From contig CAZBVQ010000001.1 of assembly GCA_964495685.1 (NCBI GenBank), positions 373,568-437,567 on the forward strand: a DNA stretch of 64,000 bases. The letters are read 5' to 3'. Source of the stretch: an uncultured Candidatus Saccharibacteria bacterium. Lineage in GTDB: Bacteria; Patescibacteriota; Minisyncoccia; Phycocordibacterales; PALSA-1337. The translations under genes were made by a program, and so were the position numbers. The notes below the pieces were generated by a model. The model was not told the DNA's origin. It was given only the letters and a program-made list of their open reading frames with translations, and made no database searches. Positions 1-52,750 of the stretch are shown in pieces (position 1 is the stretch's first letter; every line of letters begins with the position of its first letter).

Positions 1-736
1 AGCTGATTGGTATGATGATGTGGTCAATGACAGCGACTCATACCAGAAGAATGTCCTCCTGCCCAACATGCTCCGCATCGTCGATCCCAAGAAAGGGCTG
101 ACCGTGCTCGATGTCGCCTGCGGCCAAGGATATTTCTCCCGTTTTTTCGCTGGTGCTGGCGCCAAGGTCATCGCTACTGATATTTCTATCGAACTCATCG
201 AGAAGGCGCAGGCGGGTCAGATCAAGGAGTCGCCGGTCGAATATTACGTCGCTCCTGCTGACGATCTCTCCATCATCGAACCATCCTCGATCGATGTGGC
301 TACTATTGTCCTCGCACTTCAGAATATCGAAAACCTTCAAGGCACTCTCTCCGAAATTGCACGTGTCCTCAAACCGGGTGGCCGACTGGTGTTCGTGCTC
401 AATCATCCAGCATTCCGCATACCACAACGCTCCGATTGGGGATGGGATGACAAAAATGCCACGCAATATCGTCGTATCGATTCGTATATATCAGATGATC
501 GGGTGAAGATCGACATGACACCAGGCGAGAAAGATGACAAGAAAAAGAAGTTCACGGTTTCATTCCACCGACCGCTGCAAGTATATTTCAAAGCCATGAA
601 CAAAGCAGGTCTCGCGGTGACGCGTCTCGAGGAATGGGTGTCACACAAGAAAAGCCAGGAAGGTCCGCGCGCGGCAGAAGAAGATCGTATGAGGAAAGAG
701 ATTCCGTTGTTTGTGTGTGTGGAGTGTAGGAAATAA
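1..736 (+). CDS. Class I SAM-dependent methyltransferase (5'-partial; frame is open from the window edge)
   Basis: SAM-binding motif VLDVACGQGYFS followed by an acidic loop (ATDIS). The reading frame is open upstream of the first in-frame GTG/ATG, so the gene probably starts before the window. Confidence 0.6.
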   Translation, partial: ADWYDDVVNDSDSYQKNVLLPNMLRIVDPKKGLTVLDVACGQGYFSRFFAGAGAKVIATDISIELIEKAQAGQIKESPVEYYVAPADDLSIIEPSSIDVATIVLALQNIENLQGTLSEIARVLKPGGRLVFVLNHPAFRIPQRSDWGWDDKNATQYRRIDSYISDDRVKIDMTPGEKDDKKKKFTVSFHRPLQVYFKAMNKAGLAVTRLEEWVSHKKSQEGPRAAEEDRMRKEIPLFVCVECRK

Positions 737-5486: not shown

Positions 5487-6017
5487 ATGCAAAAGCCAAT
5501 CCTGGGTGCACTAATCGCACTCTTCGTTGCGGCGAACGCATCGCCGCGGGACATGACTCCAGGGGAGTCAGATAAGGGTCGGCCACCGACGCATGTGCAG
5601 TTGACCGACGAACAGTTGATGTACCTCAACAACTATTGTGGTAAACGTAGCTGGGCCATTTTTCTCTGCCGTGTACTTGGTTATTTTCACGGCAGGCATA
5701 ATGCCGACATCACGCTCGAGGATTTGCGTCCTCGTGCCGCGAAACACTGCGGACTACCTTCAGATGCGGTCTGGGAATCATTTCTTGGGGTCAAGAAATA
5801 CCAGAAGTATCTGACCGAAGTAAATCGCAAGAAAATCTCCAAGGTGCTCTTCGGGCATGAAGATGCCACCTGGGTGCAGCTGCTCAACAGGATTGAGTGG
5901 CTCCGCATCAAACGTGAACAGAACGAGATCTCGATGAGAGTGCAGGGCGACCAGGGAGGTCGCCTTTTTTGTTCTAGGCCCGGCCTAGAAATTCGGTTAT
6001 ACTACCGACATGAATAG
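5487..6017 (+). CDS. Hypothetical secreted protein
   Basis: Signal-peptide-like N-terminus (MQKPILGALIALFVAANA). The 3' end of the ORF runs through a terminator hairpin and the palindrome at 5972-5990, so the true C-terminus is uncertain. Confidence 0.35.
   Translation: MQKPILGALIALFVAANASPRDMTPGESDKGRPPTHVQLTDEQLMYLNNYCGKRSWAIFLCRVLGYFHGRHNADITLEDLRPRAAKHCGLPSDAVWESFLGVKKYQKYLTEVNRKKISKVLFGHEDATWVQLLNRIEWLRIKREQNEISMRVQGDQGGRLFCSRPGLEIRLYYRHE
5946..5970 (+). terminator. Rho-independent terminator (GGCGACC-AGGG-AGGTCGCC followed by T6)
   Basis: Perfect 7-bp GC-rich stem followed by TTTTTT, seen directly in the sequence. Confidence 0.55.
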
Positions 6018-10525: not shown

Positions 10526-10951
10526 TTAGGTTTTCGGACGATGGATCGGCCGACACGTATTGGTGATGATGGCCAGGTCAATCTCTTGCTGCATTCGTCT
10601 CACGGTGCACACTTGGAACTGTGTTCCGTTTCGGACAATTCTCGATCCGGCCAAGAATCCGTTTGCGGCAGTAGTTAGTTCTACCAGGACAGATCGTTTG
10701 AGGTGTTCGCCGGGGAATTCCTTTCCTTGATCACAAACAATGAGTACATACGCACTACTGATGAGCATGGATCCTGCTTCGCAATCATGAGCTTCTGGAG
10801 AACTAGACTCAATACGGAAGCAGAGTCTGTTTCGGGCGAGAGTGAAGTGTTCTGTATCGGTCAGAGGATCTCTTCCTGCATCAATTTTTGCGCGAATGCG
10901 TCGAACTTCATTTTCGTATGCGCGACGATTGAATCGTTTCGGTAGCTTCAT
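10526..10951 (-). CDS. Hypothetical protein (second gene of a small minus-strand operon)
   Basis: 141-aa ORF whose start overlaps the stop of the upstream 81-aa ORF by 4 nt. Ends at a bidirectional terminator (GCGCACGGAGTGTTCTGTGCGC). No recognisable domain. Confidence 0.35.
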   Translation of the reverse strand: MKLPKRFNRRAYENEVRRIRAKIDAGRDPLTDTEHFTLARNRLCFRIESSSPEAHDCEAGSMLISSAYVLIVCDQGKEFPGEHLKRSVLVELTTAANGFLAGSRIVRNGTQFQVCTVRRMQQEIDLAIITNTCRPIHRPKT

Positions 10952-11193
10952 TTCGTCCTCCTGTTTCTCACTGCCTCATCCCATGGAGGCCCTACGTAGG
11001 TCTCAATGGACAGGCCAATGAAAAGAATTATTGTTGTGACAACATCGAGACCGATTGAGAAAATCGATATCAGTACCAATGTGGCCATGTTGAGCGTGCT
11101 GTCGAGGTACTCGCCGAATGCGATCCAGAGAAATACACATATCGCAATGGCAGTTCCTGCCATGAGTGCAAGTTTCAAGTTACTCAAGTGCAT
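10948..11193 (-). CDS. Small two-helix membrane protein (hypothetical)
   Basis: Two clear hydrophobic helices (LMAGTAIAICVFLWIAF; LVLISIFSIGLDVVTTIILFIGL). Translationally coupled to the downstream ORF. Confidence 0.4.
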   Translation of the reverse strand: MHLSNLKLALMAGTAIAICVFLWIAFGEYLDSTLNMATLVLISIFSIGLDVVTTIILFIGLSIETYVGPPWDEAVRNRRTK

Positions 11194-11237
11194 GATGTTT
11201 CCTGGGTTGGGGGTTCTGAATCAAATGCTAGCACAAG

Positions 11238-14207
11238 ATGAGGTATAATCAATCCATGTCCAACCAGGTATTCGATATCCAATACAAGCGCCTCAACAAG
11301 GCCCAAAAAGAGGCAGTGGATGCCATCGAGGGACCTGTCATGGTCATCGCCGGTCCTGGAACTGGTAAAACGACTATTCTAACGCTCCGAATAGCGAATA
11401 TCCTCAAACGTACTGATACGCCCGCCAACGGCATTCTTGCCATCACCTATACCGACGCGGGAGTCAAAGCGATGCGCCAAAAACTCCAAGGAATAATAGG
11501 TGACAGAGCTCATGATGTTCGCATTCACACTTTTCATGGATTTGCTTCTTCGGTCATCGCTGAATACCCAGATCATTTCCTGCATTTGTCAGACAAGAAA
11601 CAGATGACTGATATCGAGCAGGAGTCGCTCATTCGCGCAATCATTACTGACACCAAGTTTGCTGACGTACGTCCGGCAGGCAAACCAGACGCGTATATTT
11701 CAGGGATTATTCGCAGTATAGATGATGCCAAAAGGGAGGCACTTACCCCAGAAATGGTCCGCCAACATGCACGACAGGAGATCGGGCGTATCAAGAATGA
11801 CGAGGATTCTATTTCTTCACGTGGCGCCACCAAGGGCAAACTCAAAGCCGATGCACTCGAGCAGATCGCCAAATGTGAGCGTACCATTCTGTTCGGTGAT
11901 ATTTACGAACTCTATGAAGCCAAGAAAGAAGAGGTCAAGAAGATGGATTTCAACGACCTTATCATCGAGCTTCTCCTTGCGCTCAGGAATGATGAATTGC
12001 TGCTCCGCCTTCTTCAAGAACGCTATCTCTATCTTCATGTTGATGAACATCAAGACACCAACGACGCACAAAACTTCATCGTCGGCATGATTGCTGAGTT
12101 CTTCGAGACCCCGAATATTTTCATTGTCGGTGATGAGAAGCAGGCTATTTACCGTTTCCAGGGAGCATCGGTTGAGAATTTCTTGCTTCTCCAGAAGAAA
12201 TGGCCAGCCATGAAGCTCATTTCTCTCGATACCAACTATCGCTCACACCAAGATATTCTTGATGCCAGTTTCGGCATGATTGAGAAGAACTATGAAGAAG
12301 GTGAGCATGCTGATTTGCGCATCAAATTGAAAGGTGGTTCTAAACTAGACACTGAATCTGGGTCCACATCAGGTCTACAAATCGTCACGGGCGAGAATGT
12401 GGCAGCCATCGAAGCTCATATGGTCGGAGAATTGCATGCTCTCTACGAACGTGAGCCGAACGCAACTACTGCCATCATCGTCCGTCGCAATCGTGATCTT
12501 GATCGCGTCATCAGGTTGCTCGAGTCCAATGGTATCGCCGTAGCTTCTGAGCGTAGTATCGATATGTTCAGTCATCCCGTCGGGCGCCTATTCTTTGACC
12601 TTGTTGATTATCTCACTGATCTCTCCAAGACTGACGCATTGGCACGTACGATGGTGGCAGGAATGTGGGAACTGTCGCTGGAGCAGGCCATCGATCTGGT
12701 CAAGAATGTCAAAAGTGGCAAGCCATTCGAACTTCCTGCACTTCTCGGTATCCAACGTCAGATGCTCAATGACGGCGCTATCGGCTTCCTCATTCATGCC
12801 GCAGAACAATCGGGCTTCACCACACTGGTCACTCGTCATCCTTCATATATTCATGTTTGGCGTGGCATCATCACCTTGGCAGAATCACTGACGCGGGAAG
12901 GTGACATTCGTGATCCGGTCGAGCTCATTCGTGCTATGCTCGCCTATCGACTCTCAGCTGAGACCAAGACAGTCAAAGTATCAGTCGGTGCACCTGATCT
13001 ACCTATTCGTGCCATGACAGCTCACGGGAGTAAGGGGCTTGAATTTGATCATGTATTCATACCATATGTCACCGAAGAATCATGGGTGGGTCGTCCCAAG
13101 GGCGCCTCATTCGTGTTGCCCAAGAAACGTACGGCTGATAGCGATATTCGTGATGTGCGCCGTCTCTTCTATGTGGCACTGACTCGTGCACGTAAGCATG
13201 TCACAGTCCTGACTGCACGCGAAGAGTCTGACGGCAAAGCATTGGAGCCACTACGCTTCATCGATGAGCTCGAAGAGAAGTACGCATCGCGATTGTCATT
13301 GTCGCGTGTAGGTATCGAGGCGGTGCATGAAGGAGGATCTGAGAAGCGGCGAGCGCAGAGTAGTGAGCATGATACTATCGGCACCGAACTGGTCAGCATC
13401 GCCAAGCGCGTACTCACCGAAAAGGGTTTGTCAGTGACTGCACTCAATCATTTCTTGAAATGCCCGAATACATTTTTGTATCAGAGTATATTGAAACTTC
13501 CGCAGGCGCCGTCTGTTCCTGCAGAGAAGGGAAGCGCTATGCATTATGCATTCGATGCTGCATGGCAATCTACGGATCGTTCTAGGGCTGGTCTAGAATT
13601 GGTCATGAAAGAAAAGATCACTGAATATTTTGCCGACTCATTCCTGCCAAGTGTGGAGAAGACACCTGCCATGAAAGAATTGCTTGATGATGTGCCGGCT
13701 GTCGCAGCGGCACTGGAGTCTCATTTCGCACAGTCCGAACGTGCCACAGTCTATACCGAGACATGGGTGGAGCGAGAATTCACTGGTACGTACAATGGTC
13801 AGACCATTCACATCCCACTTCACGGCAAGATGGATGCTATCGTCGATACGAGTGACCTAGTCTACGTCTATGACTACAAGACACGCCAAGCCATGTCAGT
13901 GAATGCTATCAAGGGTGAGACCAAGAGTGATTCGAGTGGTGATTATTTCCGACAGCTGATTTTCTACAAACTACTTCTCAGTGCTGATCCGCGTTGGCGT
14001 ACCAAGAAGATTGAACCAGCTCTGGTATTCGTGTCGCCAGATGACAAGGGGAGGTGCCCGACTGTGACGGTGCCTATCGAGGCGACTGACAGTGAGCGGG
14101 TTAACAAAGAGATTCAACAACTGATCGACAGTGTCTGGAGTGGTGCTATCGCCACTGCTACCTGTGATGACAAGGATTGCGAATGGTGTGGTGTGAGGAG
14201 GGTATAA
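11238..14207 (+). CDS. ATP-dependent helicase-nuclease: UvrD/PcrA-type SF1 helicase fused to a C-terminal RecB/Cas4-like PD-(D/E)xK nuclease with a Cys cluster
   Basis: Walker A (GPGTGKTT) and UvrD-like motifs (TFHGFAS; VDEHQDTN; FIVGDEKQAIYRFQGA; RSHQDIL; YVALTRARKH). C-terminal YVYDYKTRQ ... YFRQLIFYKLLL nuclease motifs plus KCPNT and CDDKDCEWCG cysteines, AddB/Cas4-like. TATAAT about 12 nt upstream of the ATG. Confidence 0.8.
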   Translation: MRYNQSMSNQVFDIQYKRLNKAQKEAVDAIEGPVMVIAGPGTGKTTILTLRIANILKRTDTPANGILAITYTDAGVKAMRQKLQGIIGDRAHDVRIHTFHGFASSVIAEYPDHFLHLSDKKQMTDIEQESLIRAIITDTKFADVRPAGKPDAYISGIIRSIDDAKREALTPEMVRQHARQEIGRIKNDEDSISSRGATKGKLKADALEQIAKCERTILFGDIYELYEAKKEEVKKMDFNDLIIELLLALRNDELLLRLLQERYLYLHVDEHQDTNDAQNFIVGMIAEFFETPNIFIVGDEKQAIYRFQGASVENFLLLQKKWPAMKLISLDTNYRSHQDILDASFGMIEKNYEEGEHADLRIKLKGGSKLDTESGSTSGLQIVTGENVAAIEAHMVGELHALYEREPNATTAIIVRRNRDLDRVIRLLESNGIAVASERSIDMFSHPVGRLFFDLVDYLTDLSKTDALARTMVAGMWELSLEQAIDLVKNVKSGKPFELPALLGIQRQMLNDGAIGFLIHAAEQSGFTTLVTRHPSYIHVWRGIITLAESLTREGDIRDPVELIRAMLAYRLSAETKTVKVSVGAPDLPIRAMTAHGSKGLEFDHVFIPYVTEESWVGRPKGASFVLPKKRTADSDIRDVRRLFYVALTRARKHVTVLTAREESDGKALEPLRFIDELEEKYASRLSLSRVGIEAVHEGGSEKRRAQSSEHDTIGTELVSIAKRVLTEKGLSVTALNHFLKCPNTFLYQSILKLPQAPSVPAEKGSAMHYAFDAAWQSTDRSRAGLELVMKEKITEYFADSFLPSVEKTPAMKELLDDVPAVAAALESHFAQSERATVYTETWVEREFTGTYNGQTIHIPLHGKMDAIVDTSDLVYVYDYKTRQAMSVNAIKGETKSDSSGDYFRQLIFYKLLLSADPRWRTKKIEPALVFVSPDDKGRCPTVTVPIEATDSERVNKEIQQLIDSVWSGAIATATCDDKDCEWCGVRRV

Positions 14208-14253: not shown

Positions 14254-15072
14254 TTATTTTGTGGCAAGCACCGCATCAATAATTGCCCTGATCGCCTCTT
14301 CTGGCAAAGCGCCACTCATGATGATGTGCATACGATCACTCGAAACGACAATTGGGGGTAAGCGTAGCTGCAATACCAAATTAGATATTACCGTATCAAC
14401 ATGTGCTGGCGCTGGTTTGGATAAGACGAAAATACTCGTCGGTGTACCAGAGATGCCCGCGTTCACACCATCAAGATACTGCTTCTCTACTTTGTCTTTG
14501 TTCTGACCACTCGAGAGACACTCGTTGAAGGCGACCACATCGAGCCCAGCGTATTTGGCGATCACAGGAAGCTGGGTCTGATCTAGTGACTTGCCCTGAT
14601 CAGAGGGAGTGATGTCGTAGAGTCGGTTGGTGAATTTCCAGAATGCATCATTGCCTCCGAGAGATGCCGCACATTCCATGGCCTGAGATTCATGGCCAGC
14701 GTTGGGGTGCAGTACACGTCCTTGTGCGTCAGGCTTGTCGAGTGGGAATGCACGGTAGACCCAAGCAACGTTGCCCGAAGGACCATAGGTCTCCATGATT
14801 TTCTTCATGGTCGGATGGAATATCTTACAAAATGGACATGAAGGGTCCGAGAATTCGATGATGCGTACGGCCGCGTTGGGATTGCCGAGGATGTGATCAT
14901 GTGAAGTGATTGGACTCACCGCTATCTCTATTTTCTGTACCTGTTGAGCTGCTGTGGTCGGTGTGGCTGCAGGAGTAGCTGGCTTGAATGCGTAAATAAG
15001 GGCGGCACCAATAATTGCGGCGGCAATGATGATGGCTCCGGGAACGGAGATGGGGTTTGATTGTTGGTTCAT
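14254..15072 (-). CDS. DsbA-family thiol:disulfide oxidoreductase (membrane-anchored thioredoxin fold)
   Basis: N-terminal hydrophobic anchor, CxxC active site (DPSCPFCKIF), thioredoxin-like length. Confidence 0.7.
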   Translation of the reverse strand: MNQQSNPISVPGAIIIAAAIIGAALIYAFKPATPAATPTTAAQQVQKIEIAVSPITSHDHILGNPNAAVRIIEFSDPSCPFCKIFHPTMKKIMETYGPSGNVAWVYRAFPLDKPDAQGRVLHPNAGHESQAMECAASLGGNDAFWKFTNRLYDITPSDQGKSLDQTQLPVIAKYAGLDVVAFNECLSSGQNKDKVEKQYLDGVNAGISGTPTSIFVLSKPAPAHVDTVISNLVLQLRLPPIVVSSDRMHIIMSGALPEEAIRAIIDAVLATK

Positions 15073-15088
15073 GGAGCTAAGTATATCA

Positions 15089-15664
15089 CTAAAACGGTAG
15101 TGTGAACGTCATGGCGTGTTCACTGCCAGTTTCCCAGGTGTCAGTTTTGAGTTTGACCTCTTTGACGGCACCCAATTCTTTGTATTTGAGGGATTTATTC
15201 TTGAGGGCATAGTCGTAGAGCTCACGCGTGAGACGTACGTCCTCAATGCAGTACTTGATGATCTTGTCGATTTCACCATTTTGCCACCACTCGATAGCGT
15301 CGAGGCCATGACCAGACTTATTCCTGCCGAGTGTCGCTTCGCCGACAGTGTCGAGTTTGAGACGGCGGCCGAGGACCTGCTGCACCTCTCTCATAAGATC
15401 AATGCTTTTGATCTTGGTGAGGTCACCGGGATAATATTTGTTGAGGAGGGGGATGTCGAAGTGATCACCATTCCAGGTCACGAATGCATCGGCTTGTTCG
15501 ATCATGGGCCATAGTTTGCCGAAGTCTTTCTCGAGGTAACTCGTGAATTCACCGGTAGCTGAATCGTGAATACAGAGGACTGATATGTCGAGTGCGGTAG
15601 GATCATTCGATCCGACATCCTGGAATGTGTTCTTGGTTTCGATATCGAACGTGATGACGTGCAT
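15089..15664 (-). CDS. DEDD-family 3'-5' exonuclease (RNase H-like fold)
   Basis: Exo motifs ITFDIETKN (Exo I), FVTWNGDHFDIPLL (Exo II), YCIEDVRLT (Exo III). Confidence 0.6.
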   Translation of the reverse strand: MHVITFDIETKNTFQDVGSNDPTALDISVLCIHDSATGEFTSYLEKDFGKLWPMIEQADAFVTWNGDHFDIPLLNKYYPGDLTKIKSIDLMREVQQVLGRRLKLDTVGEATLGRNKSGHGLDAIEWWQNGEIDKIIKYCIEDVRLTRELYDYALKNKSLKYKELGAVKEVKLKTDTWETGSEHAMTFTLPF

Positions 15665-16027
15665 AGGTCACTATTGTAGCAAGAAATATTTTTTGGGCAA
15701 AGAAAAAACGGTCGCCGAGGGAGCGACCGTTAAAGAGTGGCTAGTGACGTGATTCACCAAGACCGGAAAGAAGAACTGTTTGTCCGGAATACATGGTGGT
15801 GCCAGAGCCGATTGCTATTGCGCGATACCCGATTTGGTGAATACCGGTCGAGGGACGAATCCCGACGACTAGCGTTCGAATGGGCACAATCGCGTGATTT
15901 GCCTGTGCCCACTTTTGTGTGGAACAGACATCGACTTCTTGGTGGCAACGCACCTCACTAGCCAATGAGGATACTATACCAATCGGTAACCTCCGTCAAC
16001 TGCCTACTAGAGTCTGACTAATTCGAA

Positions 16028-17326
16028 TTAATGGCCCAAAAACGTCCTCGCAATCTCCTCCTCACTACCACTCAATTCTTCGCCGCTCGAGAGTATCTTC
16101 ATGCGCAGTTTGCCATTCTTGACTTCTTCATCACCAATACACATGATACGAGGAATGCCACGCTTATCCGCATTCTTGATCTGGTCACCGACTTTCTTGC
16201 CTGAGAGGTCCACGAAGACATTTATATTCTTGGCCCTGAATGATTGAGCGAGCTCCAGTGCATACGGAGTATTCTGGTCACCGACGACGCAGAGGGCCAC
16301 GTCCGCAGGAGACTCATTCTTGGGAAGTGTGCCGTAGGTCTCCATTAAGTCTCGTGCAATAACATCACCTGCGCCAAAACCGACGGCAGGAACTTTGTCA
16401 TTACCGAAAAGGGAAAGGAGGTCATCGTAGCGTCCACCACCGAAAACAGAACGACGATTGGCTGGATTGAGGTCATAGACTTCGAAAACTACTCCCGTGT
16501 AGTAGTCGAAGCCGCGCATCAGTGTCTGGTCGAAGCGGGCATTGGTGATACCGAGACGCTCCAGGCCAGCGATGACTTCACGTATTTCTTTGAGGCCGAC
16601 ATGCTCCTCGGTAGTTTGTGGTAGGTTCTTGGTGAATTCTTCGAAGTTTTTGGAATTGAGGAGTGTCATGAATTTCCTCGTGTTGTCACCGAGGACTTCC
16701 GTGGCAGCAGCTTCGAACCATTCTGGCTTGACCTTGTCCTTCTTGTCGATGAGTTTGGAAATCTTTTGGGCAGCTTCCTCATTCAAGCAGAAAACATCTC
16801 GTGTCACATAGTTCATGAGCTTGCGGTTGTTGATGCGGATTTCGAAGTCGGTATCCTTGAGGCCATAAGCACGTGTAATATCGTAGGCGATATTGATAGT
16901 CTCGATTTCCGCCGAAATAGACTCGACGCCGAATATGTCGACGTTGAGCTGCCAATGTTCACGGACACGACCGCGTTGAGGTTGTTCGTAACGGAATAGG
17001 TTGGGGATAGAATACCAGCGGACAGGGAAGGTAAGCTCACGCTTGCGGGCAGCGATCATGCGGGCGAGAGTAGGGGTCATCTCAGGACGGAGAGTCACTT
17101 CACGGTCGCCACGGTCAGTGAAGGTGTATGTTTGTTCGTTGATGATCTCTTCACCACTCTTGGCACGATACAAATCGGCGGGTTCCAGAACCGATGCACC
17201 GTATTCTTCATAGCCGTATGACTCGACTGCCTTGCGCCAGATATCGAAGATCTTCTTTTCAGTAGCCATATCGGCAGGGAAGAAATCTCGAACTCCTTTG
17301 TAGGAATCAGTTGAAAGCTTTTTCAT
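16028..17326 (-). CDS. hisS: Histidine--tRNA ligase
   Basis: Class II HisRS motifs (RPEMTP; FRYEQPQRGRVREHWQ; GGGRYD), C-terminal anticodon-binding domain. Confidence 0.9.
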   Translation of the reverse strand: MKKLSTDSYKGVRDFFPADMATEKKIFDIWRKAVESYGYEEYGASVLEPADLYRAKSGEEIINEQTYTFTDRGDREVTLRPEMTPTLARMIAARKRELTFPVRWYSIPNLFRYEQPQRGRVREHWQLNVDIFGVESISAEIETINIAYDITRAYGLKDTDFEIRINNRKLMNYVTRDVFCLNEEAAQKISKLIDKKDKVKPEWFEAAATEVLGDNTRKFMTLLNSKNFEEFTKNLPQTTEEHVGLKEIREVIAGLERLGITNARFDQTLMRGFDYYTGVVFEVYDLNPANRRSVFGGGRYDDLLSLFGNDKVPAVGFGAGDVIARDLMETYGTLPKNESPADVALCVVGDQNTPYALELAQSFRAKNINVFVDLSGKKVGDQIKNADKRGIPRIMCIGDEEVKNGKLRMKILSSGEELSGSEEEIARTFLGH

Positions 17327-19632: not shown

Positions 19633-21387
19633 CTATCTTCTCTCTCTGATTTCCTCTACCAATTTTTTCACCACCTCATCCACGCTCATCTGCCCGACCT
19701 GTCCCTTGTCTCTACTTTCCAGTGTCACCTTACCAGCCTGAATATCTTTGTCGCCAATGATGATTGTATAAGGCACACGTGCATTCTTGGCGGCGCGTAT
19801 TTTTTTGCCGAAATTGTCATTTGAGTCATAAAAGTCAGAACGAATCATGGCGGCACGGAGCGCCTCGTGGATTTTCTTGGCTTCGTCGGCATGCGCTTCA
19901 GCGACGGGAATAACGGCTACTTGTGTCGGTGCCAGCCAGAGAGGGAAGTTGCCACCGTAGTGTTCTATGAGGAAGCCAATGAAGCGTTCATGAGTACCGA
20001 GTGGTGCACGGTGAATACAAAGAGGTGTCTTGGCGACACCATCTTTGTCAGTATAGGTAAGACCGAATCGAGCTGGTACAGCGAAGTCGACCTGGTTGGT
20101 GGCAAGGGTAAATTCACGACCAATGGCACTCCAGACCTGCACATCAATTTTGGGACCATAGAAAGCGGCTTCGTTGGGAACTTCAATAAAAGGAATTTTT
20201 GAATCCACGAGCACTTTGCGGACCATGTCCTCGGTCTTCTTCCAGAGCGCTGGTTCGTTGACGAACTTCTGGCCCAATTTCCTGGGATCATGAGTCGAGA
20301 AACGCATGACGTACTTGTCGACACCGAAAATCTTGAAATACTGGAGATACATATCATTCACGGCCTTGAATTCATCGGCAAACTGTTCTTCTGTGCAGTA
20401 CATGTGCGCATCATTCATCTGGAGTGTGCGTACGCGCATGAGTCCGAAGAGCTCACCTGATTTCTCGTGACGATAACAGGTGCCGTATTCTGCCAAGCGA
20501 AGTGGTAGGTCGCGATAGCTCTTGGGACGAGCTCCGAAAATCTTGTGGTGATGCGGACAGTTCATGGCTTTCAGATAATATTTGCCGCCCTCGTATTCCA
20601 TCGGAGGATACATGGACTCTTCGTAGTAAGGCAGGTGACCACTCTTCAGGTACATTGATTCCTTGGCGATATGCGGTGTGCGTACACGAACATAGCCCAT
20701 TTTGAATTCAGTCTCTTTTGCCAATTTTTCTAGTTCCTCGACCAAGACTGCACCGTTCGGCAACCAGAGGGGGAGCCCTGGGCCGACATCATCATCAAAT
20801 TCGAAGAGGTCGAGCTCTTTGCCTAGCTTGCGGTGATCGCGCTTCTCAGCTTCTTTCATCATAGTTTCGTACTCGTCTAGGCCGGGCCTGGACTCGAACG
20901 CCAGGCCGTAGATACGCGTCAGTTGCGCGTTCTCCTCACTTCCACGCCAGTAGGCGCCAGCGAGTCGATTGAGCTTGAAACAATCAGATGGGATATCCTT
21001 TGCGGGATTTTCGATATGGCCACCACGGCAGAGGTCAGTAAATTTGCCCATAGTGTAGAAGGTAATTTTTTCACCCTTCTCAGCAATCTCATTGATGAGC
21101 TCTATCTTGTACGGATTGGTCTTGAAATGCTCCAGAGCTTCTTCTTTGCTGACTTCCTTGTGCTCGACTGATTTCCATGAAGGTAGAAGTTTGCGCATTT
21201 TCTTTTCGATATCCTTGAGGTCTTTCTCAACGATAGGAGTCTTGAATTCGAAGTCGTAATAAAAACCGTTATCGATGGCAGGACCGATGGTCGGCTTGGT
21301 GTCGGGATGTAGTTCAAGTACCGCCGCGGCCAAGAGGTGGGCGAGTGTGTGACGGAGATGGGGGAGGTGGTCGTTTGTTGGATTCAT
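19633..21387 (-). CDS. thrS: Threonine--tRNA ligase (short form lacking the N-terminal TGS domain)
   Basis: Class II core plus N2 editing-domain HxxxH region (LRHTLAHLLAAAV), motifs 2/3, C-terminal anticodon-binding domain. Confidence 0.9.
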   Translation of the reverse strand: MNPTNDHLPHLRHTLAHLLAAAVLELHPDTKPTIGPAIDNGFYYDFEFKTPIVEKDLKDIEKKMRKLLPSWKSVEHKEVSKEEALEHFKTNPYKIELINEIAEKGEKITFYTMGKFTDLCRGGHIENPAKDIPSDCFKLNRLAGAYWRGSEENAQLTRIYGLAFESRPGLDEYETMMKEAEKRDHRKLGKELDLFEFDDDVGPGLPLWLPNGAVLVEELEKLAKETEFKMGYVRVRTPHIAKESMYLKSGHLPYYEESMYPPMEYEGGKYYLKAMNCPHHHKIFGARPKSYRDLPLRLAEYGTCYRHEKSGELFGLMRVRTLQMNDAHMYCTEEQFADEFKAVNDMYLQYFKIFGVDKYVMRFSTHDPRKLGQKFVNEPALWKKTEDMVRKVLVDSKIPFIEVPNEAAFYGPKIDVQVWSAIGREFTLATNQVDFAVPARFGLTYTDKDGVAKTPLCIHRAPLGTHERFIGFLIEHYGGNFPLWLAPTQVAVIPVAEAHADEAKKIHEALRAAMIRSDFYDSNDNFGKKIRAAKNARVPYTIIIGDKDIQAGKVTLESRDKGQVGQMSVDEVVKKLVEEIRERR

Positions 21388-21690
21388 GTTGTGTGTTTGC
21401 GCAGGTCTACCCTGCGCATGTTATTGATAAATAAAACGCCCGAGTATATACGCGAAAATTCACGTACATACTCGGGCGGAGAACTAATGTTCTTCGTGGT
21501 TCCACCGAGTTTCCCTTCGACAAGCGTAGGGCACTCTTTGGTACAGATTGGTCTCGACTGTGAGATCGGATGGATCCGACTACGATTGGTGGCCGTAGCG
21601 ACTTCTGTGCAGGTAATTATATAATTTCTTTTATATTCAGTAAATAGGATGTGTAGTTGCGCATACATAAATATTATGGCACACTATTTT
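21388..21690 (-). promoter_or_regulatory. Putative T-box leader of thrS (minus strand)
   Basis: Minus-strand CUCGGUGGAACCACG at plus 21494-21512 resembles the T-box consensus AGGGUGGNACCGCG. Downstream terminator at 21437-21478 (CGCCCGAGUAU ... AUACUCGGGCG plus U-run), whose 3' arm is mimicked by the T-box CUCGG (antiterminator logic). An upstream hairpin loop GCCACCAAU contains the Thr codon ACC followed by A. Confidence 0.4.
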
Positions 21691-21709
21691 AGAACAAAGA
21701 GAGGATTCT

Positions 21710-22024
21710 ATGAGCGAAGAATATGATCCAGATACGTTACAACATGTCCAGAGTGGTGATTACATTGAATTTGTACCGTGGATTGTTGAGGAAAACGTCC
21801 AAGGGCACGAACGACTAGTTGCTTACTTTGGTGGTCATGGACCGTTCAAGGTTACCTCAATCGGCGGTGGAAAACATGGACTCTTCACCCTCTCGATTGA
21901 AGGAAAAGGAGCGCTTACAGGGGTTTATTCTAACAGCCTGTTCCGCAAAGTAGTTCCACGACACCCACCTCGTCCGACTTATACACTTGCTGAAATGGGT
22001 TTTGAATCTCCGCAGGAACGATAG
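21710..22024 (+). CDS. Hypothetical protein
   Basis: 104-aa ORF with no recognisable motif. Confidence 0.35.
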   Translation: MSEEYDPDTLQHVQSGDYIEFVPWIVEENVQGHERLVAYFGGHGPFKVTSIGGGKHGLFTLSIEGKGALTGVYSNSLFRKVVPRHPPRPTYTLAEMGFESPQER

Positions 22025-22066
22025 GCGAGGCAGAAAAGATGGGGCCAGGTATAGCCACCAGCACAG

Positions 22067-24963: not shown

Positions 24964-25056
24964 AAGAGCATTTACCGGGCTCTCTTTCAAAGAGAGGTCT
25001 TCGGGAAACATTGGTGCTATTCTATTGCTGAAACTGAGGAGGAATAGGGGTATTTT

Positions 25057-25094
25057 CCAGGCCCGGCCTAGAAAATATTCTAGGCCGGGCCTGG
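25057..25094. repeat. 38-nt perfect palindrome CCAGGCCCGGCCTAGAAAATATTCTAGGCCGGGCCTGG followed by a T-run
   Basis: Perfect dyad including the centre AATATT. Lies between the SBP gene stop and the rplU extended -10 element (TGTATAATG at about 25118-25126). Confidence 0.7.
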
Positions 25095-25116
25095 AATTTG
25101 CGTTTTTTGGGTCTTC

Positions 25117-27501: not shown

Positions 27502-27572
27502 GTGCTGATTGTATCACAGGGGCAGGAATGTGTCGGCGCGCACGTTATGAAATGGGTGGAAAAGGTGTGGAG

Positions 27573-27679
27573 ATCCCCGACAATGTATGCGCACAGGCCC
27601 CAGAAAGGAGAACTTCGTGGTATGCGGAGTGAGTGCCAAGATCTGTTTCTGGGGCCTGTGCGCATACATTGTTGGGGAT
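27573..27679 (+). ncRNA. Structured hairpin element, copy 1: 34-bp near-perfect stem enclosing a conserved ~33-nt core
   Basis: Left arm 27573-27606 pairs with right arm 27646-27679 (one G-T position, which is G-U on the plus transcript). Loop 27607-27645 contains CTTCGTGGTATGCGGAGTGAGTGCCAAGATC, nearly identical to the loop of copy 2. Confidence 0.45.
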
Positions 27680-27816
27680 TTTCATGGCGAATGTTGTTGT
27701 TTACTAGACCATATAAATAAATCTTCAGCGAATCTTCAGCGAATCTTCATTTTTTCTTCATGCACCATTGGTACTGTACATACATTATTAGCAACCCATA
27801 ATACACTTCCAATTTC

Positions 27817-35619: not shown

Positions 35620-35984
35620 TGGCTCCGCGGCCAGGGATCGAACCTGGGACATCCTCGTTACGTTTGGTCTCCTATTACTAGGGGTACGGACTATATCATC
35701 TCCAATGAAACTCGTGTCAAAGCTTCATTACGGAGTAAGGCGCTTCCCAGAGCATATTGCTCCAGTACTCCCACAAGGGGATAGTCTCTGAACCTTTCCC
35801 TCACATGGATTCTTGCTATGTCATCGGTGTACATAACAAAGATTCATGTGAGGGACTTGGCTGCTGATTGCCCACATTTGCATGTTGGGGTTTCCGGCAA
35901 TTCACCTTATTTTTCAGCCTAAGTTTCCTTAGGAAGCTGCTATTCTCTAACAGCGAGGCGCTCTACCGGCTGAGCTACCGCGGA
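35620..35984 (-). tRNA. tRNA-Asn (anticodon GUU) interrupted by a 289-nt group I intron
   Basis: 5' exon at plus 35950-35984 gives TCCGCGG-TA-GCTC-AGCCGGTA-GAGC-G-CCTCG-CTGT. 3' exon at plus 35620-35660 gives TAA-CGAGG-ATGTC-CCAGG-TTCGATC-CCTGG-CCGCGGA-G-CCA. Spliced cloverleaf is canonical with anticodon loop CUGUUAA. Intron (plus 35661-35949) follows U35 and ends in G. P1 is GCTGT/GCAGC with U-G, P2 is CCTAAG-GAAA-CTTAGG. Core elements P AATTGCCGGAAA, Q AATCAGCAGC, R GTTCAGAGACTA and S GATATAGTCC are all present. Confidence 0.8.
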
Positions 35985-36089
35985 ATATGTTGTGTAAGAA
36001 CGTACGTAATTCCATGAAGAATTACGTCACAAAATGTATCATATCTCGCGCCGTAAATCAAAACCGAAGTGACAAATCTGTAGTATAGT

Positions 36090-39201: not shown

Positions 39202-41172
39202 CTACAACAAACTCTCTGGATCAACTTTCACCTTCACATTGGGTGGCAATGTGCGTAGTTTCTCTAACAGATCCGAGTTGGGCCAGCCACCTTCGGATAG
39301 CTTGATCAGTCCATGAATGATGGAATTGCCTCGGACGGCCGCGGTGAATGCGGGGAACACATCAATCTCACGGGGTGCCAGTAGCGCCTGGACTTCTGCC
39401 ATGGCTGCGGCGATCGACTCTTTCTTGCCCTCGATAGTGATCTTGATCAATGTCGAATAGGGCGGATACTGGAATTGTTTGCGCTCCGCCAGCGTGGCAC
39501 GATAGAAGTCACTGATATTACCTTTCATGCCAAATTCGAAGACATGTTCATCGGCCTTGCGCGTCTGGACCAGGAATGAGCGCGTAGCCGTACTACGGAG
39601 TCGAGTCAGCAGGTACATTATTTTTTCTTGAATACGGAAATCAGGAAGTGCCAGAAGTGAATCGAGCGAAGCGATGGCGACATGATCTATTTTTTCGCCG
39701 AGGTGGACCAGTGCCATTTCGGTGCCGAGTAGGATACTTCCTGGCTTGGCACGGAATGAGTCGAGTGTGGCATGAATCTGTGCATCAGTCTTGGTGGTGT
39801 CGGCGTCGATTTTGAACACCTCAATATCAGGAAACTCGGCGCGGAGTTCTTCGTAGACACGATCGATACCGATGCCGAGTGGTGTCAGACGCCAACTGTC
39901 ACAGGTGCGGCATTTCTCGTTGGCATCACGTCGTTCACCGCAATGATGACACATGAAGAAAGTGCGACCAGTCGTTTTGGACGAATGAAGAACTACAGGT
40001 GATGAGCAGGTCGAACAAGAAACAATGGTTTCGCAGTCGCCACATATGGTAATAGGCGACAATCCACGTCGCATGGTCAGGATGAATAGGTGGGTACTAC
40101 TTTCTTGATTGTAGGCGATGAGTTCTTTGAGTTCTTGAGAGAGGACTCGGAAAGGTATAGTGCCTACCTCGGTTTTTTGGTCGGATGATTCTGTTGGTGT
40201 AGCGGTGCGCAATAGGCCAGATTTCATATCTATCAACACATCCTGTGCATTCGATATTGATCGCCACTTGAAGGGAGAACCCTGGGCAATTTCGTGACTG
40301 TCTACTCGGTGTAGAGTTTCGGTACGTAGGACACTGTCAGCTCGATACACGGTCTGCTTCTGTCGACGAGCGATAGTTTCGAGTGCGTGACGAATATCGA
40401 GGTAGGGATGCTTGATACTCATCCAGCCACGACTATTTTCACGTTCAATGACAATACTATCTATATCAGCACGTGGAATGACTGTGAACGATCCGGTGGC
40501 CACCACGACGACTGGGTGTGCGGTCTCGGCGATATTCTTCCAGGTGTCGATTATTTCTTTCTTGGTGAGTTTGCCGTGGAGGGTGAAGATATACCCCTCG
40601 ATACCTTTGGTCAATGCCTCAGTCAGCCACCGAGCATCTTCAATAGTGGGGACATAGAGGGCGATAGAACGTTTGCGAGCGAATTCTTGCCTGATGAGTG
40701 AGCGCCACGAACCGATACGATCTTCATCGTCGCCTTGGATGGCGTAGGTCTCATCGATGCTACCGGCCTTGAGATCGTTGAAGAAAGGATTCTGTCGTAC
40801 GGGCATGGCGATCTTGTTCGCATTTTCGAGGAGGATGTCAGAGACGAGTGAGTCGATGATAGAGCCGACGCTGGCAGCATAGTAGTCTGCGAGCACAGTG
40901 CACGCTTCCATGAATGTGGCGGGGAAAAAGGCAGTTGATTTGATGCGCCCGAGTTTCTTCATCTGGAATGAGGCGCTGCGAATTTCGGCCTTCATGTCGA
41001 CGGCGGGACGAATACTGGTGACGATGGCGTATATGTTCTTGGAGCGAAGTGGTACAGACACGATGGCACCCAAGGTCACCTCCGCGCTGGTGAAATAGGA
41101 GAGTTCACCGGCGATTTTCGATCGAGTGAGTGGGATGACGGTGATGACATTGAGGATAGGGGAAGAGGTCAT
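39202..41172 (-). CDS. priA: Primosomal protein N' (PriA helicase)
   Basis: N-terminal 3'-DNA-binding domain, helicase lobes, Cys4-Cys4 zinc-binding insert (CGDCETIVSCSTCSSPVVLH ... CHHCGERRDANEKCRTCDS), C-terminal domain. Confidence 0.9.
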   Translation of the reverse strand: MTSSPILNVITVIPLTRSKIAGELSYFTSAEVTLGAIVSVPLRSKNIYAIVTSIRPAVDMKAEIRSASFQMKKLGRIKSTAFFPATFMEACTVLADYYAASVGSIIDSLVSDILLENANKIAMPVRQNPFFNDLKAGSIDETYAIQGDDEDRIGSWRSLIRQEFARKRSIALYVPTIEDARWLTEALTKGIEGYIFTLHGKLTKKEIIDTWKNIAETAHPVVVVATGSFTVIPRADIDSIVIERENSRGWMSIKHPYLDIRHALETIARRQKQTVYRADSVLRTETLHRVDSHEIAQGSPFKWRSISNAQDVLIDMKSGLLRTATPTESSDQKTEVGTIPFRVLSQELKELIAYNQESSTHLFILTMRRGLSPITICGDCETIVSCSTCSSPVVLHSSKTTGRTFFMCHHCGERRDANEKCRTCDSWRLTPLGIGIDRVYEELRAEFPDIEVFKIDADTTKTDAQIHATLDSFRAKPGSILLGTEMALVHLGEKIDHVAIASLDSLLALPDFRIQEKIMYLLTRLRSTATRSFLVQTRKADEHVFEFGMKGNISDFYRATLAERKQFQYPPYSTLIKITIEGKKESIAAAMAEVQALLAPREIDVFPAFTAAVRGNSIIHGLIKLSEGGWPNSDLLEKLRTLPPNVKVKVDPESLL

Positions 41173-41240
41173 TGGTGTATTTATACATAATTTGTTTCAT
41201 TTGTGAAATCGCCCAAAAAACGCTAGAATACCGCCTACGT

Positions 41241-41795
41241 ATGATAAAAGAATTTGACCGCTGGAATGGGACGAAGAAAAAAATGGACCTCAAGGTGCAG
41301 GCTGTTGACTTTCATGAACGTGAAATCTGGTGGTGTTCTATTGGGGTCAATATCGGATCAGAACAACATTCTCAATCTGTTGATTTCAGTAGGCCAGTTA
41401 TCATTGTCAAGAAATTCACAAACAGGATTTTTTTGGGGATACCACTTACAACAAAAAATAGAAAAGGTTTGTTCCGAATAAGTTTTCTGTTAGGGAGTGT
41501 TTTGAATGATATGTTAGTTTTACAGATGCGATCATTCGATAGGAAACGTCTGATTAACAAAATAGGCATGTTGCCACAAGCCGAATTTGACTCACTTAAT
41601 ACATTTATTGCGCAACTGTTTACCAAAAGTATGAAAACCCCGATTGACGGGGTTTCCGAGGCCGAAGCCAGTGTGTTTACGGAGTTTCATGTTGAAACCT
41701 CGTATACCAGAAGTATAGAAGAACATCGGCTTTTGTCAAGATTCTATGGTGAGTTGTATGCATATAGAATGTATCGTTCGGGGATATGTCTATAA
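41241..41795 (+). CDS. PemK/MazF-family endoribonuclease-like protein (solo; no adjacent antitoxin recognisable)
   Basis: REIWWCSIGVNIGSEQHSQSVDFSRPVIIV ... GIPLTTKNRKGLFRISF matches the MazF/PemK/EndoA core (EIWW ... G ... GSEQ ... RP-V-I-V ... P-L-T). It has an extra about 70-aa C-terminal extension. Confidence 0.5.
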   Translation: MIKEFDRWNGTKKKMDLKVQAVDFHEREIWWCSIGVNIGSEQHSQSVDFSRPVIIVKKFTNRIFLGIPLTTKNRKGLFRISFLLGSVLNDMLVLQMRSFDRKRLINKIGMLPQAEFDSLNTFIAQLFTKSMKTPIDGVSEAEASVFTEFHVETSYTRSIEEHRLLSRFYGELYAYRMYRSGICL

Positions 41796-44956: not shown

Positions 44957-44965
44957 CAGACGGAG

Positions 44966-45076
44966 CACCAGGCGAACATGTGAGTGAGGAAGCCTTGCGA
45001 GTGCGACTGGCACGAGCACGAGGAATTTTTCAGCAGAAAAATATCCGTGCTTCCGAAGTCACATGTTCGCCTGGTG
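44966..45076. repeat. Long inverted repeat (18-bp perfect arms CACCAGGCGAACATGTGA / TCACATGTTCGCCTGGTG plus extra GGAAG/CTTCC) enclosing about 75 nt, just upstream of the frr promoter
   Basis: Arms at 44966-44983 and 45059-45076. Followed by the extended -10 element TGCTATAAT at 45083-45091. Confidence 0.6.
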
Positions 45077-45122
45077 CGGTAGCTGTGCTATAATCGCTTC
45101 ATATAACCTAACCACTACCTTT

Positions 45123-50812: not shown

Positions 50813-52540
50813 GTGCCCATGCCATTCTCCCTCCAACGACTGATGTTCTGGCGTCGACGTCGCCGACGAGTGACGGAGATCGCTCCGGATGAAGTCATGT
50901 TGGATTCCAGCAACTTGCCGGAATTCGATACATCTCAATTCGAAGGACGTCTGGAGAAACCAATATCCAAGGTCTCACTATTCATGGTGGTGATCATATT
51001 CGGCATCATCGCAGTCGTCTATATTATACAGACGGGTAACCTGCAGATCGCTCATGGTGATGAGTATCGTGGACGAAGTGAACGTAATCTTCTCCGCCCA
51101 GTACCCATCTTCGCTGGCCGCGGAGTTATCGAAGATCGCATCGGACACCTCTTGGCATGGAACGCACCATCTCAGACTGTATCAGCCACCGCCACCGACG
51201 AAGTCGTCGCTACACGGCAATATGCCACTACTACTGGCCTCTCGCACGTTCTGGGATATGTGAAATATCCTTCGAAAGACAAAAACGGATTCTACTATCA
51301 AGATGATTTCGAGGGTGTGGCAGGTGCCGAAAAATATTTCGACCCCAACCTTCAAGGCAGGAATGGTTCTCGGCTCATCGAAGTCGATGCACATGGCGAT
51401 ATTATTTCAGGGAATGTTGTTCGGCCTCCGGTACAAGGTGCTTCCGTCACGTTGTCGATCGATAGTCGAGTCCAGTCCTCATTGTATGATCACATCAAAG
51501 GCATTGCAGAAAGTGTCGGATTTGCCGGTGGTGCAGGTGTCATTATCGATGTGCGCACTGGCGAACTTATCGCACTCACCAGTTACCCAGAATATAGCTC
51601 TCAAGTCATGTCTGACAGGAATGACACGGCGCGTATCAAGTCGTTGTTGGCCAACAAAGATTTACCATTCCTCAATCGTGCTGTCGATGGTCTCTACACA
51701 CCGGGTTCGGTGGTCAAACCGTACGTGGCTTTGGCCGCATTGACTGAACATACGATTGATCCCAGCACAGTTATTGTTACTACGGGTTCAGTTTCTATTC
51801 CCAACCCGTATGATCCGACCAAGAGTACCGTTTTCAAAGATTGGAAGAATAATGGGTCACTTGATATGCGCCATGCTATTGCCGCATCATCTGACGCCTA
51901 TTTCTATATCATTGGCGGTGGCTACAAAGATCAGAAAGGTCTCGGTATAGCCAACATCGACAAATATCTACGCATGTTCGGCCTGGGTTCACAGATTCCA
52001 GACTCATTCGCCCAGGGCAAGATCGGTACTATCCCGACACCAGAATGGAAAAAGACGACATTCAACGAAGATTGGTATCTCGGAAATACGTATCATACCG
52101 CCATTGGGCAGTATGGTTTCCAGGTCACTCCTATCCAGATGGCACGTGCCGTAGCGGCGATGGCCAATAGTGGTATTCTACTCACGCCAACTATCATCAA
52201 AGATGATGGTCCTCACGTCGATCGTTTCATCGACGCCATTCCTGCCAAGAATTTCCAGATCGTCCGGGAAGGTATGCGTCTCAGTGTCACCGAAGGTACT
52301 AGCAAAGCGCTCAATGTGCCTTTCACGAATGTGGCAGGAAAGTCTGGTACTGCTGAGCTTGGTGTCAGCAAGGATAAGGTCAACTCCTGGATTACCGGTT
52401 TCTGGCCGTATGAGAATCCCAAATATGCATTCACAGTGATGCTCGAAAAAGGTTCAGTGCACAACCTCATTGGTGCTGCAGCAGCCATGCGTCAGCAGCT
52501 CGATTGGATGGGGGAGCATACACCTGAGTACTTCAAGTAA
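50813..52540 (+). CDS. mrdA: Penicillin-binding protein 2 (elongasome transpeptidase)
   Basis: N-terminal TM, dimerisation domain, transpeptidase motifs SxxK (GSVVKP), SxN (SSDAYF), KSG (GKSGTA). Confidence 0.85.
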   Translation: MPMPFSLQRLMFWRRRRRRVTEIAPDEVMLDSSNLPEFDTSQFEGRLEKPISKVSLFMVVIIFGIIAVVYIIQTGNLQIAHGDEYRGRSERNLLRPVPIFAGRGVIEDRIGHLLAWNAPSQTVSATATDEVVATRQYATTTGLSHVLGYVKYPSKDKNGFYYQDDFEGVAGAEKYFDPNLQGRNGSRLIEVDAHGDIISGNVVRPPVQGASVTLSIDSRVQSSLYDHIKGIAESVGFAGGAGVIIDVRTGELIALTSYPEYSSQVMSDRNDTARIKSLLANKDLPFLNRAVDGLYTPGSVVKPYVALAALTEHTIDPSTVIVTTGSVSIPNPYDPTKSTVFKDWKNNGSLDMRHAIAASSDAYFYIIGGGYKDQKGLGIANIDKYLRMFGLGSQIPDSFAQGKIGTIPTPEWKKTTFNEDWYLGNTYHTAIGQYGFQVTPIQMARAVAAMANSGILLTPTIIKDDGPHVDRFIDAIPAKNFQIVREGMRLSVTEGTSKALNVPFTNVAGKSGTAELGVSKDKVNSWITGFWPYENPKYAFTVMLEKGSVHNLIGAAAAMRQQLDWMGEHTPEYFK

Positions 52541-52551
52541 TCGCTCAATCA

Positions 52552-52659
52552 GGCCGGCAGGAATATGTGCACGTGATGCGAATGAAGGTTAATTCGTGGT
52601 ATGCGGAGTATGTTCCAAGATCGGTTCATTCGCATCACGTGCGCATATTCCTGCCGGCC
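52552..52659 (+). ncRNA. Structured hairpin element, copy 2: 35-bp near-perfect stem enclosing the conserved ~33-nt core
   Basis: Left arm 52552-52586 pairs with right arm 52625-52659 (one T-G position, which is U-G on the plus transcript). Loop 52587-52624 contains ATTCGTGGTATGCGGAGTATGTTCCAAGATC. Confidence 0.45.
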
Positions 52660-52750
52660 CCCTTTATACACTTTTCGTATTGTGGCATAAGGGTTTTGGT
52701 GCTAGAATAACGGTCTATTAACCTAGGAACTAAGGTCTCTTTTTATTGCC

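Follow-up and report, generated by a model that had tools for sequence, protein, structure and literature searches.

A 64,000-nucleotide (nt) stretch from an uncultured bacterium deposited as Candidatus Saccharibacteria (GenBank assembly GCA_964495685.1, contig CAZBVQ010000001.1, positions 373,568 to 437,567 of the forward strand; the whole stretch is referred to as the window) contains two intergenic hairpins, copy 1 at 27573-27679 and copy 2 at 52552-52659, with long stems and a common core at the apex. Both hairpins are real, lineage-specific and rapidly replaced insertions. Each is a hairpin with a few conserved islands amid a freely covarying stem, and not a conserved loop between random arms. 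On a reading that we favour tentatively, they belong, with a probable third member in a relative designated L031, to a small, lineage-restricted family of intergenic hairpin insertion elements that would be active as folded single strands. The window is compact and carries housekeeping genes, and the closest homologues of its GreA and DnaB proteins bear Candidatus Taylorbacteria names (Parcubacteria/Paceibacteria, within the candidate phyla radiation, CPR).

Structure of the hairpins and change in their stems

An earlier reading of the window, made without database searches (the sequence-only reading), had described two near-perfect hairpins with a loop core common to both, and both observations were confirmed. 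Copy 1 has a 34-bp stem with one G.T mismatch and a 39-nt loop, and copy 2 has a 35-bp stem with one T.G mismatch and a 38-nt loop, giving units of 107-108 nt. Their parts are as follows.

27573-27606, plus strand: 5' arm of copy 1, 34 nt, with the island TGCGCAC at 27588-27594 and GAAA abutting the loop.
27607-27645, plus strand: apical domain of copy 1, 39 nt, composed of GGAGAACTTCG, TGGTATGCGGAGTGAGTGCCA and AGATCTG, with the 30-nt core at 27614-27643.
27646-27679, plus strand: 3' arm of copy 1, 34 nt, with a single G.T against the 5' arm (27579 G opposite 27673 T).
52552-52586, plus strand: 5' arm of copy 2, 35 nt, with TGAA abutting the loop.
52587-52624, plus strand: apical domain of copy 2, 38 nt, composed of GGTTAATTCG, TGGTATGCGGAGTATGTTCCA and AGATCGG, with the core at 52593-52622.
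52625-52659, plus strand: 3' arm of copy 2, 35 nt, which holds GTGCGCATA (the complement of the island) and has a single T.G against the 5' arm.

The core, TTCGTGGTATGCGGAGTnnGTnCCAAGATC, is identical at 27 of 30 positions between the two copies, and the entire loops are identical at 32 of 39. Its exact 17-mer occurs at two sites in the window, in copy 1 and copy 2 only, and shuffled windows gave an expectation of 0.18 core matches at three or fewer mismatches. A third match with three mismatches (412-428, minus strand) lies within a methyltransferase coding region and has no hairpin, and we attribute it to chance. The arm sequences of the two copies occur nowhere else in the window besides their own partner arms. 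Both copies fold with z-scores of -10 to -14 relative to dinucleotide shuffles, and the plus-strand fold is 8-10 kcal/mol more stable than the minus-strand fold. A small central hairpin, with closing pairs UGG/CCA, is predicted within the apical domain of copy 1.

The hairpins are not assembly artefacts, because independent assemblies carry them. An ENA MEGAHIT contig (521,699 nt), one Logan contig and two short JGI contigs contain copy 2 in identical form. Copy 1 is present in the ENA contig, and an independent Logan contig covers it up to the start of the second arm, where it stops, as is expected for a k=31 assembly.

A third hairpin was identified in the orthologous dnaB-pilin spacer of L031 (DnaB 94%). 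Its 39-nt arms are 79% complementary, with the inner 21 bp perfect, and enclose a 40-nt loop; the fold is predicted at -77 to -86 kcal/mol (z -7.7 to -9.8). This element and copy 1 have in common the arm sequence TGCGCACAGG, the sequence GTGGTATG and the loop sequence GTGAGTG(ga)CCA(t)GATC, and the remainder of its arms largely differs from the arms in the window. The loop aligned to the window loops in inverted orientation relative to the flanks with a score of 27 (p=0.003), versus 13 in direct orientation (p=0.46), although a score of 27 is unremarkable in a genome-wide scan. Taken together, the shared site, the motif in the arm and the alignment of the loops suggest that the L031 element is a third member of the family, with its core inverted relative to the flanking genes. 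Across about 400 kb of Taylorbacteria loci, long arms and a large loop were found in combination only in copy 1, copy 2 and the L031 hairpin.

The arms of copies 1 and 2 had been described as unrelated, with pairing preserved by complete covariation. The first of these claims does not hold. The two copies have TATGCGCAC in common in the same register (p about 0.003), each of the three elements has a TGCGCAC island at a distance of 12-15 nt from the loop, and GAA-loop-TTC forms the stem top of every arm in all three. Islands are also kept in the loop (UGGU...GUGAGUG...CCA-GAUC). Since MAFFT alignments of the three elements were asymmetric in the arms, pairs were counted with a loop-anchored script. 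Over 34 pairs counted from the loop, copies 1 and 2 have 13 identical pairs (about 8.5 expected by chance), 19 pairs that changed on both sides and two that changed on one side. Of the second claim, heavy compensatory change in the stem is supported. Across all three elements, a double change occurred at 18 of the innermost 21 pairs and pairing was kept at all 21.

As had been noted, each copy has a single non-Watson-Crick pair, and in both it is G.U on the plus strand. We oriented the elements by the sense of the core (GTGGT...GTGAGTG...CCA.GATC) before scoring mismatches. Read on the core-sense strand, the transition-type mismatches of the three elements are all G.U, with no A.C among them: one in copy 1 plus two in its outer extension, one in copy 2, and two in L031 plus one in its outer part. 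This gives 4/4 within the stems (one-sided p=0.06) and 7/7 when the outer extensions are included (p=0.008). The more stable fold is that of the core-sense strand in all three elements, which in L031 is the opposite genomic strand. The stabler strand and the G.U bias track the orientation of the core and not the genome strand; therefore, replication-strand composition does not explain them. Either pairing is selected on one single strand, as RNA or as single-stranded DNA (ssDNA), or the core-sense strand is the non-template strand of a transcript and gathers C-to-T changes. Of the proposed plus-strand RNA structure, a strand-specific single-stranded structure is supported by the G.U-only mismatches, also in L031, but these do not separate RNA from ssDNA.

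Turnover at orthologous sites

Conserved synteny allowed orthologous spacers to be compared across relatives. The spacer between PBP2 and greA, which holds copy 2, measures 210 nt in the window, 173 nt in L021 (GreA 88%), 61 nt in L023/L024 (86%) and 98 nt in L026 (83%). Neither the hairpin nor the core was detected at this site in L021, L023/L024 or L026, and copy 2 is a lineage-specific insertion. Separately, a segment of the PBP2-greA spacer of L026 (9920-9945, CCGATCTTGCTTGAAATACCTCC) aligns to the reverse complement of the copy 2 loop with p=0.004 before correction for 12 tests, which is probably chance.

The flanks of the dnaB-pilin spacer, which holds copy 1, are conserved (left ...GGTGGAAAAGRTGTGGAG, right ...AATAAATCTTCAGC), and the content between them differs in every lineage examined. 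The site is empty in L042 (DnaB 91%; ...GCTGTGGA/CTTCAGC), and in L036 (DnaB 91%) it holds about 50 nt with a short repeat only and no significant fold. In L034/L035 (DnaB 93%) the site upstream of dnaB carries an unrelated perfect palindrome, TGAAGAATAGCAAGGCGAGACCTCGCT/AGCGAGGTCTCGCCTTGCTATTCTTCA, with 27-bp arms and no loop (L034 1-54; L035 1-30). One of these two contigs terminates precisely where the second arm does, the other at the palindrome's midpoint, so this palindrome may be real or a fold-back assembly artefact, and its extent is uncertain. The closest relative, L033 (DnaB 96%), has at 1-45 a palindrome like that at 25055-25096 of the window, also at a contig end. These comparisons show that, on the time scale at which species diverge, elements are gained, lost and replaced by other palindromes, and that they occur in either orientation. 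Orthologous sites do not conserve the element, which is absent, replaced or inverted there.

Candidate explanations and known element classes

If the hairpins are insertion elements active as folded single strands, as we tentatively favour, each unit would be recognised and propagated as a single strand through its shape and its few conserved islands, and a trans-acting enzyme encoded outside the window would act on the units. Precedents are integron attC sites and the terminal hairpins of REP/RAYT and IS200/IS605-type elements, for which the enzymes read folded single strands. Arm-to-arm templated repair (intrastrand template switching) may help to keep the arms near-perfect. Copy 2, which sits behind an operon, is probably transcribed as a long double-stranded RNA hairpin, which might incidentally serve as a 3'-end barrier or an RNase III site.

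The likeness to known classes is partial in each case. Integron attC sites are imperfect palindromes of about 60-140 nt that keep structure and a few motifs while their sequence varies; they are recognised on one strand, and different units may occupy one insertion point. However, attC sites carry their motifs R''/R' (RYYYAAC/GTTRRRY) at the stem base and are variable at the centre, whereas here the centre is the most conserved part. The stem base of copy 1 (CCCCGAC...GTTGGGG) is partly similar to these motifs, that of copy 2 reads GGCCGGC...GCCGGCC, and the window has no integrase, attI or cassette open reading frame (ORF).

Repetitive extragenic palindromes (REPs), the bacterial interspersed mosaic elements (BIMEs) that they form and IS200/IS605-derived elements (RAYT/TnpA Y1) are likewise intergenic hairpins, often just past stop codons, with polymorphic presence and enzymes that act on the folded strand. 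REPs are described as 20-40 bp long, high in copy number and sequence-conserved within a genome, with a GTAG or CGTC tag (PMC3733652). In contrast, the units described here are about 107 nt long in at least two copies, their arms differ, they have no end tag, and the window has no RAYT/Y1 gene.

Miniature inverted-repeat transposable elements (MITEs) and Rickettsia-type palindromic elements (RPEs) resemble our hairpins as non-coding, lineage-specific palindromic insertions of about 100-150 bp in a small genome. MITE and RPE copies are alike over their full length, though, and MITEs have target-site duplications, whereas here only the centre and the islands are alike, 13 of 34 arm pairs are common to the two copies, and no duplication was found. 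Of the two possibilities that the sequence-only reading had raised, a cis-regulatory or processed RNA and a non-autonomous mobile element, the latter is nearer to the evidence. The arms are not the conserved terminal inverted repeats of an insertion sequence or MITE, however; the TGCGCAC and GAA islands are conserved between them and the rest differs.

Several observations weigh against a family of insertions acting as single strands. The known members number only three. The cores of the two window copies are far more alike than their arms, which a simple history of copying and divergence does not predict, and the G.U-only mismatches suit an RNA function equally well as an ssDNA intermediate. 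No transposase, recombinase, HUH/RAYT, integrase or reverse transcriptase gene was found in the window or in the 10 kb past its right end. No target-site duplication was seen, nor a clean insertion boundary: no direct repeats flank copies 1 and 2, the comparison with the empty site of L042 gives no clean boundary, and the closest relatives are either too diverged or represented by contigs that end inside a palindrome. Scans for the core among GTDB representatives, JGI metagenome contigs and IMG/VR returned chance or coding matches (e.g., to the SecA segment KWYAEFAK), but these collections evidently do not include this genome, whose own copies were not recovered, so the scans have little bearing on absence. 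Searches of phages and plasmids using blastn gave chance matches in tape-measure genes (E=0.08) or none.

A functional RNA gene of a new family, acting in trans or bound by protein, in which a long stem of free sequence presents a conserved apical domain, would account for several of the same features but is in our view unlikely. It is consistent with the G.U-only mismatches on the core-sense strand of three independent elements, with conserved islands separated by covarying stem, with the similar geometry of the three members (34-39-nt arms and 38-40-nt loops) and with the retention of a member at the dnaB-pilin spacer in two species. On the other hand, several close relatives lack the element at the same sites and have unrelated palindromes instead, the core is poorly conserved between species, and no promoter-like site was found on the sense strand upstream of copy 1. 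Nor is there a terminator after either copy. Intrinsic terminators are short G+C-rich hairpins that have loops of 3-8 nt and precede a U tract; a scan for them found none at either locus, where the loops are 38-39 nt and the stems are trailed by only UUU(U). Comparison with Rfam matched no family to either copy. A scan of the window with Rfam 15 at gathering thresholds returned a group I intron and two tRNAs only, and scans by E-value gave nothing for copy 1 and, for copy 2, generic hairpins far below gathering (mir-4536, 37 bits vs 76; SNORD69, 26 vs 37).

The hairpins could also be passive DNA palindromes that arise from replication template switching or hairpin-primed repair at fragile intergenic sites, with the common core as a by-product of copying between loci, an explanation that we again judge unlikely. 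Unrelated long palindromes at the same spot in different relatives fit this account, as do other lineage-specific palindromes of the genome (44965-45077 and 25055-25096). In the left arm of copy 1, the distal ATCC is part of the ancestral flank also seen in L031 and L033, and its mirror GGAT is present here only, which fits outward templated growth. The window's best non-self match to a copy 2 arm (GGCAGGAATATGCGCACGTGATGCGAATG) lies directly left of copy 1 (GGCAGGAATGTGTCGGCGCGCACGTTATGAAATG, 27520-27555), in a segment that varies between relatives; its position is striking, but its score is within the chance range, so that position alone is unusual. Passive palindromes do not predict islands at a fixed distance from the loop, a near-identical core at two unlinked loci, or a G.U-only bias that follows the core-sense strand in either genomic orientation.

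More doubtful is the idea that the hairpins are RNA or ssDNA modules of an undescribed CPR system, in which a protein would read the apical domain and TGCGCAC while the stem is free to change. Such a system might be a divergent, dispersed relative of stem-loop tigRNAs, the guide RNAs of TIGR-Tas systems, with a Tas-like protein encoded elsewhere, or a structure-specific recombination site that swaps units at fixed sites.

Another reading would make the hairpins orphan guides resembling stem-loop tigRNAs, with variable palindromic stems on either side of a unit of about 36 nt (two short spacers and a central hairpin between them) that a Nop-domain Tas protein from another locus would bind. In stem-loop tigRNAs, which CPR bacteria commonly have, the stems vary in sequence yet are consistently palindromic, they enclose a pair of short spacers and a loop, and conservation is confined to a few nucleotides beside the boxes. 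The boxes of TasR are UG (box D) and CCA (box C), and in one CPR clade, whose TasR is catalytically dead, the stems are extended and the loop contains a hairpin (PMC12045711; bioRxiv 10.64898/2026.09.09.750476). The resemblance lies in the CPR host, in the presence of a system in close relatives and in a unit of about 34-40 nt with a small central hairpin. Variable, consistently palindromic stems are present in both copies, but at 34-35 bp. The conserved centre of the three members begins with UG, ends with CCA and is closed by UGG/CCA, and the single-stranded segments flanking this UG...CCA hairpin measure 11 and 7 nt in copy 1, 10 and 7 nt in copy 2, and 10 and 10 nt in L031.

The relatives L036 and L042 encode TasR-like proteins of 468 and 463 amino acids, respectively, which match Pfam Transposase_20 (E=7e-8) and whose sole sequence match in the PDB is TasR 9MTY (E=3e-4). 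The N-terminus of these proteins reads GIR, presumably at the position of the first catalytic Asp of IS110-type enzymes, as in the CPR TasR with a dead RuvC domain. About 1 kb of stem-loop units lies on either side of each gene, with 8-14-bp stems and 33-35-nt loops in which a hairpin of about 16 nt has 9 nt on either side. These loci lie between RmuC and ThrRS, at 14110-17575 in L036 (gene 15050-16453, minus strand) and at 10160-13240 in L042 (gene 10889-12277, minus strand). As a separate observation, other genes occupy the RmuC-ThrRS spot in L037 and L038, which encode the identical DnaB, and the TasR-like locus is therefore polymorphic within one species.

Guides of this kind are nevertheless very unlikely to explain the window copies. 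No Nop, Transposase_20 or IS110-like gene was found among the window ORFs or in the 10 kb past the right end, tblastn with the TasR proteins of the relatives gave no match here, the best 120 TasR homologues include none on the long contigs of this genome, and the syntenic ThrRS-RmuC spacer (21388-22066) has no trace of the system or of an array remnant. The units are solitary, 25 kb apart in housekeeping spacers, and form no tandem array. Their putative spacers are near-identical between copies (60-85% by eye) while their stems differ, the reverse of a guide array, and no targets for these putative spacers were found in the window beyond chance. With 34-35-bp stems and 38-39-nt loops, the window copies have stems 3-4 times longer than the 8-14-bp stems of the relatives' arrays (loops 33-35 nt). 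The outer boxes and CUU are not consistently present: in copy 2 and in L031 the first spacer has no box C before it, the stem base of copy 1 has no CUU, and a CUU occurs only 4 nt past the stem of copy 2.

The sequence-only reading had placed both copies in 5'-untranslated region (UTR)-like positions of plus-strand genes and suggested a cis-regulatory RNA of the pilin-like gene and greA. Copy 2 starts 12 nt past the PBP2 (mrdA) stop codon (52538-52540), and 92 nt separate its end from the start codon of greA. The divergent dnaB and pilin-like genes flank copy 1, which is upstream of both promoters. Two promoter-like sites are listed here.

52679-52707, plus strand: greA promoter-like site, TTGTGG-17-TAGAAT, read from the sequence and compared with L021, L023 and L026 (unlisted by a consensus scan).
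27508-27536, minus strand: dnaB promoter-like site, CCGACA-17-TACAAT with an upstream TG, conserved in relatives and lying between copy 1 and dnaB.

The greA site lies between copy 2 and greA, outside the element and part of its context, and has counterparts in hairpin-free relatives (TTGTAT...TAGAAT, TTGTTG...TATAAT and TTGAAA...TACAAT). The dnaB ATG is about 7 nt past the -10 box, and the dnaB mRNA is probably leaderless. A pilin promoter-like site lies at least about 95 nt downstream of copy 1. Because the predicted greA and pilin promoters are downstream of the hairpins, neither copy lies in a 5' UTR, and copy 2 has a 3'-UTR-like position. The pilin-like gene is preceded, at 27722-27750, by about 2.5 tandem copies of an 11-nt repeat, GAATCTTCAGC, which L031, L036 and L042 conserve in part and which may serve to regulate the pilin promoter.

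A cis-regulatory 5'-UTR RNA acting on the downstream plus-strand genes would agree with the plus-strand orientation of both copies upstream of such genes and with their stabler plus-strand folds, but is highly improbable, since the promoters lie downstream of the hairpins and are kept in relatives without them, the orthologous element of L031 faces dnaB and not the pilin gene, the greA leaders of three relatives have no element, and orthologous sites are empty, replaced or inverted. We found no evidence that the element regulates greA or the pilin gene.

Other signals were considered at these loci and rejected. A replication origin or terminus at copy 1 is ruled out by a GC skew that is positive along the whole window. 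Inspection by eye picked out a sigma-54-type -24/-12 motif (TGGCAC-N5-CCGC) on the core's minus strand, which L031 does not conserve, and a small ORF starting from the core GTG has no conserved frame or stop across the three elements (L031 by eye). GATC is not avoided in the window, and the loop GATC was not retained as a restriction or methylation signal.

Other features of the window and implications

A further long hairpin occupies 44965-45077, as a 113-nt lineage-specific insertion between holB and frr. It has 29-nt arms with three transversion-type mismatches and a 55-nt structured centre (-68 kcal/mol), and lies 8 nt past the stop codon of the gene for DNA polymerase III delta', with the frr promoter just downstream of it. 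The holB-frr spacer has no such hairpin in L023 (49 nt) or L026 (36 nt). We rejected it as a member of the family, its arm and loop similarity being not significant.

At 25055-25096, upstream of rplU, there is a perfect palindrome with 19-bp arms (TTCCAGGCCCGGCCTAGAA-aata-TTCTAGGCCGGGCCTGGAA) followed by a T-rich run, which is missing from the L036 spacer. Its half-site, AGGCCCGGCCTAGA, is also found at 5972-5990, at 20875-20891 (minus strand) and at 61813-61829 (minus strand), two of these as 19-bp palindromes near gene starts. This palindrome, which recurs at the dnaB-upstream site of L033, could be mobile or could serve as an operator. The over-represented 9-mers GGCAGGAAT and GTGCCAAGA were set aside, as their occurrences are mostly coding and have no common context.

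Two other features were recorded. A tRNA gene at 35627-35990 (minus strand) has its anticodon loop split by a group I intron (Rfam 35668-35959); its anticodon is GUU (Asn), CCA is encoded, and ARAGORN did not call it. A 207-amino-acid ORF at 41172-41795 has a PemK/MazF-like toxin domain at residues 50-150, and its start overlaps the end of a PriA-like gene on the opposite strand.

These results carry a caution, in that perfect 'covariation' between two copies is insufficient to establish a cis-regulatory RNA. If the hairpins were functional RNAs, whether or not of a TIGR-like kind, they would point to dispersed guide-like or protein-bound hairpin RNAs outside recognisable arrays, and if neither that reading nor the single-strand reading is true, they are well-documented lineage-specific selfish palindromes. 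If they are instead active as folded single strands, as we tentatively favour, they would represent a bacterial repeat family outside integrons that keeps its hairpin structure while most of the stem sequence is replaced. Such a family would be found in a CPR lineage about whose mobile elements and RNA biology almost nothing is known, and it would mark intergenic sites that swap palindromes between very close relatives.

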